A stretch of DNA of 64,000 bases from Escherichia coli (lineage in GTDB: Bacteria; Pseudomonadota; Gammaproteobacteria; Enterobacterales; Enterobacteriaceae). The notes under the pieces were generated by a model. The model made no database searches. It was not told the origin of the DNA and worked only from the letters and a program-made list of their open reading frames with translations. Positions 55,503 through 60,152 of this stretch are shown one piece after another (within the stretch, counting starts at the first letter, position 1; each line of letters opens with the position of its first letter). The DNA lies in the NCBI RefSeq assembly GCF_003790525.1, contig NZ_CP033635.1; one strand, given 5' to 3'. The position numbers were made by a program, and so were the translations under genes.

Positions 55503-58500
55503 TTACCACTGAATACCGGCACCGAGTGCGGCGGAGTATTCACCCTGGCTATTGGTACTACCTTGTAATTTGTAGACCCAACGACCATTGGCGCTCACCA
55601 TCGACACACCTAAAGCAACAGCCGATTCACCGTTGTAAGTACCACCACCAATAGAGGCCATGCTGGCTCCCGGCGTGTAAGCCTGCGGCAGACCGGTCAT
55701 TGCCATTGCGGAAGCGATACCACCGCTCAACTTGCTTTCGGTTTTGGACAGTTTGTTATCCATCTCAACCATGCGCTGATCGGTGTATTGCTTCGTTTCC
55801 TGCACACTTTGCTTCAGCTGCGCATAGTTCACCGCGTCGTTGTTGTTCACGCCAGCAGAAACGTTGCTGATGCGAGTCGTACCGCCATTTCCGCCACCGA
55901 GAGTGATGTTGCTGTAGTCGATAGAGCCATCAGCTTTGGTGTCGTAGCGAACGCCGCCTGCTTCAGAAGACTTCAGTTGTGAAACGTTAACCGCATCGGT
56001 GGCATTAACACCGGCAGCAACGTTGGTGATACGGCGCTGGTTGGTAGAAGAACCCACAGAGATGGTGTTTTCTTCGTTGGCCACGGAACCGGTACCCAGC
56101 GCGACGCTGTTGTCAGCGGCAGCAATGGAACCAGAACCAATTGCAACACTGTCTTTACCCTGCGCGTTGGCATCTACGCCATCGGTGTTGGTCTTGAAGT
56201 ATTTGGTGCTACCGGTGGTTACGATATCGCCAATGCCGTTTTCGATATTGGTCACGCGAGTATCCAGATTCGTCACCTGATTGTTCAGGTTAGTAATGCT
56301 CTGGGTATTCTGGGAAACCTGCGCGTCCGTTACTTTCAACTGACCCACGTTAACCGCATCGGTATCCGCTGAACCAGCCGCGACGTTGGTGATCTGACGT
56401 TGACCGTCTTCACTGCCGACAGAGAACTCACCCACAGAGTTCTGTGGTGCGTCCATGTTGTAGGCGCTGTAGTTGGTCTGCGCACCACGGGTAGTCTGAG
56501 AACCATTCCCCATTGCAATGCTGTTTGCATGGTTTGCACTTGCGTTGCTACCGATAGCAATACCATTGATCGCATCAGCCAGAACTAAAGTGTTCAGGCC
56601 GATACCAATACCCGCATTACCATTAACGATGGTTTTTGCGCCCATTGCCAGCGAGTCTTCACCGACTGCCAGTGAGTCTTCTGCCGTTGAGTTGGCGTGA
56701 TAGTACTTGGTTGGCGTAGTGGCGACCGCGCCAATAGCGTTTTGCAACTGGCGAACCGTAACGGCGTCATGGGCTTCGGAACCATCGGCTACGTTGATGA
56801 TTTGACGATATTTACCATCGTCACCGATCGACAATGCGCCAAGCAGTTCACCATCAGTTGTGTCATAACCAATCACAACACCTTCTTCCGACACGCTGGT
56901 GTCACGAGAACCTTTAACTATTAAACGGCTGGAAACGGAACTGCTACCCAGGGCGATACCCGTCTCAACTTCGCTGCGGCTGTCCTGACCAATGGCTACG
57001 CTGCTGGCTTTGGAAGCAACAGAGTTATAACCCACTGCTGTAGCGCCAACACCCTGTGCGCTGGCATCGGTGAAGGTTAAACCGGTGTCATTGGTACGCA
57101 CATAGTTAATACCTGCACCATTTTCTTCGATGTAGGTTTCACTGGTGTTACCAGCAAGCTGATTAATGACTTCGCTGTTCTGCTGGATCAGCATATTGGT
57201 GTTAAACAGCTGAGAACCGTTGATAGCATCGGTGCTGCCTTCCCCGATATTACCATCAGCGACATTAGTGATGATGCTGGCTTTGCCATCATGACTGGCG
57301 TTGTAAGCCCCTTCGCCGTTATTGGCTGTCGCATCCCACAGCAACGCGTTCTCATCAAGCGCATCCAGAGCTTCACCGACGTTGTTGTAATCGGTATTTG
57401 CAATGGTGTAAGTCGGCGCAGTGATAGTGCCGTCAGCGTTGACTTCTGCGTTACCGCCCAGCGCATCAGCGATGTACTTATTGGTGGTATAGAGTTGTGA
57501 GCCGTTAATCGCGTCGCTGCTGGTGGCAGAGATTGCACCATTTGCGACGTTAGTAATCTTACTGGCGGTGTTATCTACCCCGCGACCGGCGCTGAATGCA
57601 CCAGCACCGTCATTGGCTGTCGCATCCCAGAGCAGGGCATCACCGAGAGAATCACTAAATGAAGTGTTAATTGCGGCCAGAGCATCCCCGACGTTAGTGT
57701 AGTCAGTGCCGCCAATACTATAGGTTGGCCCGGTTAATACACCTGTATCGCTAATATCAGCACCACCACCCAGATAGGACGTGAATGAATCAGCCAAACC
57801 ATATAGTTGTGAGCCATTTATGGCGTCAGTGCTGTCAGAGGAGACTATGCCAGCTTGTACGTTGCTGATTTTGTTGGTGGCGTTAGTACCGTGTGCAGCG
57901 GTGAATGCGCCTGCGGCGTCGTCCCATTTCAGGGCGTCTTCACCGAGATTATTCACCGTATCAGTCAGGTTAGTGATATTGGTGGTGTTAGTGGCGATAT
58001 TGGTGGTGTTGGTCGCCACGTTATCGTTGGTGGTTTTCAGCTGGGAGCCGTTAACCGCGTCAGTGCTGCCAGCAGTCAGGTCGCCAGCGGTGACGTTGGT
58101 GATTTTGCTGGTGGCATCGGTGCCGTGCGCGGCGCTGAATGCGCCAGCCGCTTTGTTCCACAGCAGGGAATCATCACCAAGACTGTCAACAGCGTTAGTC
58201 AGGTTGGTGATATTGGTGGTGTTAGTGGCGATATTGGTGGTGTTGGTCGCCACGTTATCGTTGGTGGTTTTCAGCTGAGAACCGTTGACGGCGTCGGTGC
58301 TGCCAGCAGTCAGGTCGCCAGCGGTGACGTTGGTGATTTTGCTGGTGGCATCGGTGCCGTGCGCGGCGCTGAATGCGCCAGCCGCTTTGTTCCACAGCAG
58401 GGAATCATCACCGAGACTGTCAACAGCGTTAGTCAGGTTGGTGATATTGGTGGTGTTAGTGGCGATATTGGTGGTGTTGGTCGCCACGTTATCGTTGGTG

Positions 58501-60152
58501 GTTTTCAGCTGAGAACCGTTGACGGCGTCGGTGCTGGTATCAGAGAGTTCGCCAGCGGTGACATTGGTGATTTTGTTGGTGGCGTTAGTGCCGTGTGCAG
58601 CGGTGAATGCGCCTGCGGCGTCGTCCCATTTCAGGGCGTCTTCACCGAGGTTAGTCACCGTATCAGTCAGGTTAGTGATACTGGTGGTGTTGCCAGCCAC
58701 TTCGCTCGTCAGGTTAGTGATGTTGGTGGTGTTTGCCGCCACATCGTCCTTGGTCGCTTTCAGCTGAGAACCGTTGACGGCGTCGGTGCTGGTGTCAGAG
58801 AGCTCACCAGCGGTGACATTGGTGATTTTGCTGGTGACGTCGGTGCCGTGTGCAGCGCTGAACGCGGTGCCGTTCCACAACAGAGCATCCTGCTGCAGGT
58901 CGTACAATTGAGAGCCGTTTACTACATCGGTGCTGGTTGCAGAAACCGTACCTTTAGCAACATTAGTGATTTTACTGGTGGTATTTGAGCCGTGTGCAGC
59001 GGTGAATGCCCCCGCGGTTCTATTCCATTGCAGAGTATTATTGTCGATTCCTGACAGAGCATCACCCACGTTATTATAGGTGCCGCTTTTCAACGCGTAG
59101 CTTAGTGCGGTTACGGTGCCGTCGCTGCCTACAGTAGCGCCTCCCCCGAGCCGTTTGGCGACTGAATCACTGATCGTATAAAGCTGTGAGCCGTTGATGG
59201 CATCGGTACTGGTGTTGCTTATGGCACCGGCAGCCATATTAACAATTTTGCGTTTTGTTGTGCTGTTGCCAACTGAAACTGTATTGCTTGCATCAGTGGT
59301 CGATCCTGCGCCGATAGCGACAGAATTGTCGGTCGCTGCTGTAGCCCCTACACCGAGGGCGACAGAATCATTGCCGCTTGCCCTGGATTGACTACCGAAA
59401 GCTAGACTGTTGCTGCCTCCCGCGGCACTGCCCTCTCCTAGCGCGATGGCATTCTCTCCTGCAGACGAACTGTTACTGCCCAACGCGATTGAGTTCACTT
59501 TGCTCGCAATGCTGCCTTGCCCCAGCGCAATCGCGTTTTGTTCGCTGGCTTCACTTGTGTTACCTAATGCAATACTGGATTCGCCAGATGCCTGACTTGC
59601 GTTTCCTAATGCAAGGCTGTATTTACCAAGTGCCTTGCTCTCATTGCCAAGGGCTACCGCGTACTCTGCATCGGTGAAAGCAAATACCCCCATCGCGATG
59701 GAGTAACCCGCATTTATGCTTGCACTCGACGAAGCGCCCATCGAAATAGAGCGGTCACCGTTAGATTGTGCTTTAACCCCAAGAGCCAGTGAAGCATTGC
59801 CATTCGATTCGCTATATGCACCTAACGCAGTACTCCACATACCTAACGCTTTGGAGTAGTAGCCCACGGCAGTTGCTGCGCCATTCGTTGTGGTATGAGT
59901 GCTTGCTTCAGCATCGGTACCAATAGCTATCCAACCTGTTCCATTATTATGACCAGCAGGGGTAACACCAGTACCTGTATCTAACCCTGCCTGAGCTAAT
60001 GCCCCAGACGACGACAATAATCCACCCGCAACCAGTGCAGAAATTAACAGCTTACTGCGCCCGCTCTTCTTCCCACGACTTTTCGCCGTTTCGCTGGCAA
60101 CGCTGTAACTGCCCGTCGCTGGATTCCAGATAACTTTAAAAATTTTGTTCAT
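55503..60152 (-). CDS. upaG: trimeric autotransporter adhesin (UpaG/EhaG/SadA-like)
   Basis: 1549 aa; extended signal peptide [21 protein letters not shown]; YadA-like head repeats (SIALG/NSVALG/NAIALG); long stalk with NTTNITNLT and AVNGSQL repeats; C-terminal YadA-type anchor ending GAGIQW; positional equivalent of upaG/ehaG between lldP and yibL. Confidence 0.8.
57840..58800. repeat. tandem intragenic repeats in the adhesin stalk (core period 234 bp)
   Basis: The segment AGGTTGGTGATATTGGTGGTGTTAGTGGCGATATTGGTGGTGTTGGTCGCCACGTTATCGTTGGTGGTTTTCAGCTG recurs at about 57967, 58201 and 58435; encodes two identical 78-aa protein blocks; flanked by more degenerate copies. Confidence 0.85.

Follow-up and report, generated by a model that had tools for sequence, protein, structure and literature searches.

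A tandem array of identical stalk modules in an adhesin gene of Escherichia coli is very probably the product of a recent in-frame duplication of one module, which varies in copy number through misaligned pairing. The gene lies in a 64,000-nucleotide stretch of contig NZ_CP033635.1 (hereafter the window) and encodes a trimeric autotransporter adhesin (TAA) at the chromosomal position of UpaG, EhaG and SadA. The window is 100% identical to E. coli SMS-3-5 (NC_010498.1), and the sequence of its gene outside the array is called the SMS-3-5 backbone below. Judging from the alleles found in other genomes, versions with one, two, three and four units circulate on the same gene backbone.

Units of the stalk array and their copy number

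The translation of 55503-60152 contains exactly two copies of the repeated block of 78 amino acids (aa) (units A and B; Table 1). The two DNA copies differ at 6 of 234 nucleotides (nt), which is 97.4% identity, and the differences (0-based offsets 65, 182, 188, 191, 197 and 200) all fall on synonymous third-codon positions, five of them within 19 nt. The sequence-only reading, which a model had made from the letters of this stretch, had described two identical 78-aa blocks on near-identical tandem DNA at 57840-58800, in frame because 234 is 78 x 3, with more diverged copies on either side. These particulars were accurate: the blocks lie where it had put them, and the diverged copies are units U and D. 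The gene runs on the minus strand. Tandem Repeats Finder reports a period of 234 with 3.6 copies at 57859-58691 (score 1174), and a repeat search gave four copies at 234-nt spacing across 57805-58806. When the register is shifted, the best 234-nt window equals its +234 partner at 233 of 234 positions, against at most 106/234 in the control, which consisted of 30 codon shuffles of the gene. Exact runs at this lag measure 123, 116 and 71 nt. The array is also a mosaic: the middle segments of U and D are of one type and those of A and B of another, U and A agree in their last 58 nt, and the first 38 nt of D match the start of both A and B. At all six positions that distinguish A from B, which we use as markers, unit A agrees with U.

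Judged by sequence match, the repeat unit, 78 aa per chain, is one whole stalk module. A two-unit query matched the solved SadA fragments 2ynz, 3zmf and 2yo2 (E 1e-15 to 1e-14) over 67-79 residues, nearly the whole unit, and each unit carries one Pfam YadA_stalk (neck) match, at aa 605-648 and aa 683-726. The layout comprises a short coiled coil (about three heptads with polar Asn core positions), the DALL connector DDSLLWN...AGAFSAAHG and the neck SKITNVTAG..., which leads into the next coiled coil. A DALL-type motif directly followed by neck and then coiled coil makes the unit a coiled coil-DALL-neck module in the terms of the daTAA dictionary. Since the repeat thus coincides with a whole structural module, gain or loss of 234 base pairs (bp) adds or removes exactly one module.

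Copy number was followed at the protein level in a search of about 5.8 billion proteins and at the nucleotide level in 5,426 complete E. coli genomes. Proteins of 1471, 1549, 1627 and 1705 aa contain one, two, three and four exact copies of the unit, respectively. On the SMS-3-5 backbone we found one unit (P0002, 104 contigs), two units (P0001, 524 contigs) and three units (P0006), and these three proteins show no amino acid difference once the array is removed. A second protein backbone, marked by seven substitutions, occurs with one to four units (P0111, P0104, P0007 and P0005, in this order; P0111 is recorded on 224 contigs), and a backbone with the G337E variant occurs with one (P0102) and two (P0089). 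The markers give the unit order A-A-B for the three-unit allele and A-A-A-B' for the four-unit allele, and all one- to four-unit alleles stay open reading frames (ORFs). The nucleotide survey resolved four backbones (100%, 98.3%, 97.6% and 97.0% identity to SMS-3-5), each represented by one- and two-unit genes that differ from one another by 0-1 nt outside the array. If one event is counted for every extra copy-number state on each backbone, at least eight independent changes are implied.

The 4416-bp one-unit gene is present in 13 complete genomes distributed over all four backbones. The 4650-bp two-unit gene accounts for 52 of the best 60 records listed: 21 complete genomes carry it in a form 100% identical to the gene of the window, and, among the matches listed, 31 further complete genomes carry two-unit genes on the three other backbones. 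Roughly 150 complete genomes have a gene of this allele class, and the unit itself is present at 80% coverage or more in 747 of the 5,426 genomes, at 1-8 places per genome. Two points of the sequence-only reading could be settled by these data. The copy-number polymorphism that it had expected across E. coli exists, on backbones that are otherwise identical, and a uniform copy number in all isolates, which it had named as grounds for abandoning the idea, was not what we saw, given the 13 one-unit genomes and the isolate pair described below. Its second such ground was an assembly artefact. Tandem repeats of this size are a recognized assembly hazard, and in badA of Bartonella henselae short-read and even Sanger assemblies failed to show repeated domain blocks that came to light with long reads (PMC8859334). 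We nevertheless give practically no credence to the notion that the two-copy state in the window is an artefact of the SMS-3-5 assembly, collapsed or wrongly expanded. The 21 identical genes come from different laboratories, hosts and countries, the two-unit state recurs in the 31 genomes with other backbones, and the units can be told apart by their six markers, with the order always A then B.

A change between close relatives is seen in two dog-urine isolates of one collection, the one-unit CUVET19-1396 and the two-unit CUVET17-1418. The 20-kb flanks of the gene do not differ between SMS-3-5, TUM1586 and the two CUVET isolates, except for a far-upstream indel in TUM1586, so that these lineages are not separable by the flanks, and a distant region of 50 kb was compared instead. 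No single-nucleotide polymorphism (SNP) separates the two CUVET isolates across the 40 kb of flanking sequence, and a single one does so in the 49,754 bp compared at the distant locus. Because the pair thus differs by one SNP across about 90 kb, the change in copy number arose within one clone. As a separate observation, this sole SNP creates an internal stop in adrA (46189-47304 of the extracted locus), which encodes a diguanylate cyclase of the biofilm pathway, and it is found in the one-unit isolate; its occurrence alongside the one-unit state may be coincidence.

Near-identical units also vary in number outside these backbones. In another allele class an 1831-aa protein has four near-identical units and a 1987-aa protein has six, the two being otherwise identical. 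The upaG gene of Nissle 1917 (2842-8178 of the extracted locus) has tandem repeats of its own, 234 bp at 99.6% and 213 bp at 99.1%, whereas ehaG of O157:H7 (2524-7290 of the extracted locus) has only diverged module repeats at 77-80% identity. Since the repeats are near-perfect in UpaG and diverged in O157 EhaG, instability should differ between the allele classes. Across the UpaG/EhaG/SadA-type family the number of necks ranges from 9 to 14.

Some variants depart from the simple series. Protein P0043 (1567 aa), compared with P0001, has one 78-aa unit fewer and an extra 96-aa module containing DALL and neck further down the stalk. Five complete genomes have a gene of 4641 bp (9 bp shorter), EC17CM2 has its adhesin gene split into two annotated pieces, and enteropathogenic E. 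coli E2348/69 has several annotated fragments at the adhesin locus. Unit length in related alleles is 71, 78 or 85 aa, in steps of exactly one heptad, for example an inserted TNLTGEV; below the level of whole modules, such heptad steps thus vary the length more finely and still in register.

Junction of the one-unit allele and proposed mechanism

On the SMS-3-5 backbone the one-unit gene shares with the two-unit gene a prefix of 1856 nt and a suffix of 2676 nt, and these sum to 4416 + 116. The junction of the one-unit gene therefore falls inside the 116-nt run that A and B have in common, and the marker pattern of its single unit, CTGTCC, is a hybrid. A junction inside perfect identity is what units that pair out of register and then undergo exchange or template switching would be expected to leave. 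We propose that the exact stretches of 116-123 nt would let neighboring units pair one unit out of register, during replication or in an exchange between sister chromosomes, and that the product would have one unit more or fewer, in frame and as a whole module. The same process, together with gene conversion, could keep the units of one allele alike and make the array mosaic. Allele-specific residues are indeed common to all units of an allele. Taken together, mosaic segments, identical units and shared allele-specific residues indicate concerted evolution of the units through repeated rounds of unequal exchange and conversion. On the 97.0% backbone (strain 2016C-3878, gene at 301-4950 of the extracted locus, and also WP2-W18-ESBL-08) the array carries the sequence of the neighboring unit at offsets 164-175; the two 234-bp units of 2016C-3878 are 100% identical to each other, and in both of them ELSDTS replaces DLTAGS. 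Identical units on this backbone are evidence of homogenization or of a very recent re-duplication.

One might argue that the repeat is static and that the one-, three- and four-unit versions in the databases are mostly assembly errors. The contigs that carry these proteins are mostly drafts, and an exact repeat of 116-123 nt is, by our own reckoning, near the k-mer sizes common in assemblers. However, the one-unit gene stands in the 13 complete chromosomes on four backbones, the one-unit proteins P0111 and P0002 are recorded on 224 and 104 contigs, and alleles with three or four units cannot come from collapse. Additionally, if an assembly collapsed across the 123-nt run, the longest exact repeat, the marker pattern would be the pure B one, TTGTCC, which differs from the CTGTCC observed. 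Thus we hold a static repeat to be very improbable.

Several points weigh against a recent duplication that changes copy number by misaligned pairing, and they should be considered together. The case is built on assembled sequences, in which collapse of the repeat could explain some of the one-unit genes of short-read drafts; one-unit genes make up a larger share of all contigs (about 361 of 1047) than of the listed complete genomes (13 vs at least 52), and the three- and four-unit alleles are found only on draft contigs of 93-380 kb, from assemblies such as GCA_001616335.1 (three units) and GCA_002941795.1 (four units). Each change could be a gain or a loss, the direction not being fixed by the sequences. 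In the three other backbones C already stands at offset 65 of the second unit, and so the "hybrid" pattern of the one-unit gene could descend from such an ancestor. Likewise, the six synonymous differences between A and B may be imports by conversion and not changes that followed the duplication; because A equals U at all six markers, the word "recent" is not datable from these differences. For this reason we rejected an attempt to date the duplication from them, as the states match those of the neighboring unit and may represent conversion tracts.

The pathway behind the misaligned pairing, RecA-dependent unequal exchange or RecA-independent template switching, would be plausible either way at 234 bp. 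RecA requires a few tens of base pairs of identity. The exact identity of 116-123 nt exceeds this length, the junction sits in the 116-nt stretch, and the mosaic segments resemble conversion tracts, all of which would agree with unequal homologous recombination by RecA. On the other side, deletion between 101-bp tandem repeats in E. coli was RecA-independent and was explained by template switching at the replication fork (PMC8378479), and both routes yield identical products between which the sequences cannot discriminate. An origin specifically in RecA-dependent recombination, which the sequence-only reading had assumed, as opposed to slippage or template switching, is therefore a tentative proposal that we somewhat doubt.

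Consequences and comparable systems

Each change in copy number would leave the trimeric fibre one module longer or shorter, with one DALL-neck hairpin ring more or fewer; the step is about 5 nm per module as estimated from general coiled-coil geometry. Such changes may influence adhesion, aggregation or the reach of the fibre beyond O-antigen or capsule. In other TAAs function does depend on the length of the stalk and the number of repeats; AtaA, for instance, requires a minimum length to function (PMC11385948). An identical module that is gained or lost alters the length and the epitope valency and brings no new epitope, and the change of antigenicity that the sequence-only reading had suggested is not supported.

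The last point also bears on the idea that the array serves immune evasion by high-frequency switching, as a programmed contingency or phase-variation device. In TAAs of other species, variation in repeat number has been tied to adhesion, to exposure at the surface and to evasion of immunity (PMC9704523), and the change in our gene recurs on several backbones. However, the 234-bp unit is not a simple-sequence repeat, and every variant observed is in frame, which leaves no on/off switch. The identity of the whole gene in 21 complete genomes of diverse sources argues against very fast switching, and identical modules do not diversify the epitopes. We find such a device hard to believe in, and a simple-sequence phase switch in particular was rejected, as the unit spans 78 codons and all alleles are open.

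The neck/stalk array of BadA from B. henselae is the closest known case, and UpaG, EhaG and SadA are the closest relatives. As in the adhesin of the window, the TAA stalk of BadA is an array of (FGG)-coiled coil-DALL-neck modules, in which the short neck/stalk domains (up to 87 aa) have no FGG motif (PMC9602544); the 78-aa units of our adhesin have none either. Module number in BadA ranges from 18 to 34 between strains and is ascribed to recombination between the repeats (PMC8859334), and our adhesin varies in number as well. DALL-neck motifs of BadA bind fibronectin, cumulatively (PMC9602544). The two systems differ in that BadA has about 3000-4000 aa, lies in an island with pseudogene donors and has been shown to bind fibronectin, whereas the adhesin of the window varies between one and four near-identical modules and has no donor cassettes. 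UpaG (CFT073/Nissle 1917), EhaG (O157:H7) and SadA (Salmonella) share with it the chromosomal position and the overall plan. Near-perfect tandem modules are a feature that UpaG of Nissle has likewise and EhaG of O157 has not, and SadA is the source of the best matches of solved structure to the adhesin and to its units.

Another TAA with a variable number of tandem peptide repeats is Cha of the Haemophilus cryptic genospecies. Its repeat unit is reportedly about 28 aa, far shorter than ours and not a whole coiled coil-DALL-neck module. In the account of Cha given within a broader article, repeat number modulates adhesion and is linked to surface exposure (PMC9704523, citing Sheets and St Geme 2011). 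Compared with BadA and Cha, our finding is ordinary, well-precedented variation; it extends behavior of the BadA type to a common E. coli gene and leaves the view of the TAA class unchanged. No paper on the 234-bp polymorphism of the E. coli gene turned up in a search of the literature on upaG, within a reach that did not include the primary UpaG/EhaG/SadA papers.

A comparison with the periscope proteins (Rib, Alpha C and SasG) is also instructive. These have near-identical tandem repeats of more than 50 residues, are rod-like and vary in repeat number among close relatives; homologous recombination is the proposed mechanism, and extension or retraction of a functional tip is the proposed role (PMC9704523). 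In its repeats our adhesin resembles them: the 78-aa units are 100% identical in protein and 97.4% in DNA, and they are present in one to four copies on identical backbones. The class is defined, however, by monomeric single chains with independently folding repeat domains, and TAAs are explicitly excluded (PMC9704523). As a TAA whose module would fold only as a trimer, the adhesin is not a member of the class, and it may work like one. It could be that the UpaG-family stalk is a trimeric equivalent of the periscope, in which gain and loss of modules (one to six near-identical units across the allele classes) is selected, although we judge this to be unlikely. If the stalk did behave as a periscope, the reach of the fibre and its DALL-neck valency would be matched either to how thick the O-antigen or capsule is or to the niche in the host, and copy number would be a fast-evolving adaptive trait and not neutral noise.

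Adhesins of the UpaG family are studied for their part in colonization and as scaffolds for vaccines or surface display (PMC7247748, PMC11054257). Should the stalk move in steps of 78 aa within clones, typing by presence or absence and allele calls from short reads could be wrong by whole modules, constructs or antisera derived from a single strain may misrepresent its relatives, and the length of the fibre relative to the lipopolysaccharide or capsule layer becomes a testable variable in adhesion. With its own marker bases, the array could moreover serve as a natural tandem-repeat reporter on the chromosome, in which recombination and slippage could be compared in E. coli.

The adhesin gene and its locus

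Coordinates of the gene, the units and the upstream neighbor are collected in Table 1; gene annotation and neighbors were read from the RefSeq record NC_010498.1.

Table 1. Positions in the window of the adhesin gene, the parts of its repeat array and the neighboring lipoprotein gene.
Feature	Position	Strand	Remarks
Trimeric autotransporter adhesin gene, complete, 1549 aa, 4650 bp	55503..60152	-	ORF, Pfam, PDB matches, RefSeq annotation
Unit U, diverged upstream copy, aa 481-558	58479..58712	-	78.6% identical to A
Unit A, first identical 78-aa module, aa 559-636	58245..58478	-	marker bases CCCCTT
Unit B, second identical 78-aa module, aa 637-714	58011..58244	-	marker bases TTGTCC
Unit D, diverged downstream copy, aa 715-792	57777..58010	-	70.9% identical to B
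High-identity tract, 2.4 unit lengths, gene positions 1617-2180	57973..58536	-	6 mismatches at lag 234
116-nt stretch of unit A, perfect match to the stretch in B	58297..58412	-	one-unit allele has its junction here
Matching 116-nt stretch of unit B	58063..58178	-	
21-bp (one heptad) tandem repeat at the unit start	58439-58478 (A), 58205-58244 (B), 57969-58010 (D)	-	Tandem Repeats Finder period 21
227-aa DUF3251 / SadB-YajI family lipoprotein gene, upstream neighbor	60196..60879	-	ORF and RefSeq annotation

The adhesin, labeled "YadA-like family protein" by the RefSeq Prokaryotic Genome Annotation Pipeline (PGAP), has the signal peptide, the head, neck and stalk repeats and the C-terminal anchor of a type Vc TAA. 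The Pfam scan, which covered aa 1-1200, gave the extended signal peptide ESPR at aa 1-48 (PF13018, E 2.9e-15), multiple matches of YadA_head (PF05658) and 10 matches of YadA_stalk (neck; PF05662). The anchor was covered by matches in the PDB, where aa 1462-1549 resemble the Hia anchor structures 3emo, 2gr7 and 2gr8, and by a precomputed Pfam match to the YadA-type anchor PF03895 for the identical protein P0001. Further PDB matches are to YadA, UspA1, Hia, AtaA and SadA, the best overall being the Salmonella SadA fragments. By homology, the adhesin would form a homotrimer on the cell surface.

The genes mtlADR, yibT, yibL and a DUF3251/SadB-type lipoprotein gene lie upstream of the adhesin, and lldPRD lies downstream. 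The same position (yibL, a DUF3251/SadB-like gene, the adhesin, lldP) surrounds upaG in Nissle 1917 and ehaG in O157:H7. The adhesin thus belongs by location to the UpaG/EhaG/SadA positional group and, with full-length identity of 64% to Nissle 1917 UpaG and 66% to O157:H7 EhaG, is too diverged for either name. The NCBIfam search gave no adhesin-specific model; generic TAA models alone matched, every one below its cut-off. Because identity to UpaG and EhaG is only 64-66% at a shared position and no specific NCBIfam model applies, the SMS-3-5 adhesin is a third allele class at this locus. The sequence-only reading had placed the array in an adhesin stalk at upaG/ehaG; the TAA stalk and the locus stood, while the protein turned out not to be UpaG or EhaG proper.

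The lipoprotein of the DUF3251 / SadB-YajI family appears to be the usual partner of adhesins of the UpaG/EhaG/SadA family, and its functional role is putative. A search of this lipoprotein against NCBIfam at E 1e-5 returned zero matches. One accession of the upstream lipoprotein bears two labels across records, "DUF3251 domain-containing protein" and "SadB/YajI family lipoprotein".

Two plus-strand ORFs lie opposite the array, at 57855-58988 (377 aa) and 57781-58278 (165 aa), and RefSeq annotates no gene there. A functional gene on this strand, considered for the 377-aa ORF, was rejected; being unannotated in RefSeq, the ORF is best read as a by-product of a repetitive antisense strand that is poor in stop codons. 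Finally, a 42-bp tandem repeat (two copies, 78% match) at 59553-59635 in the head region corresponds to the 14-residue YadA-like head repeats.

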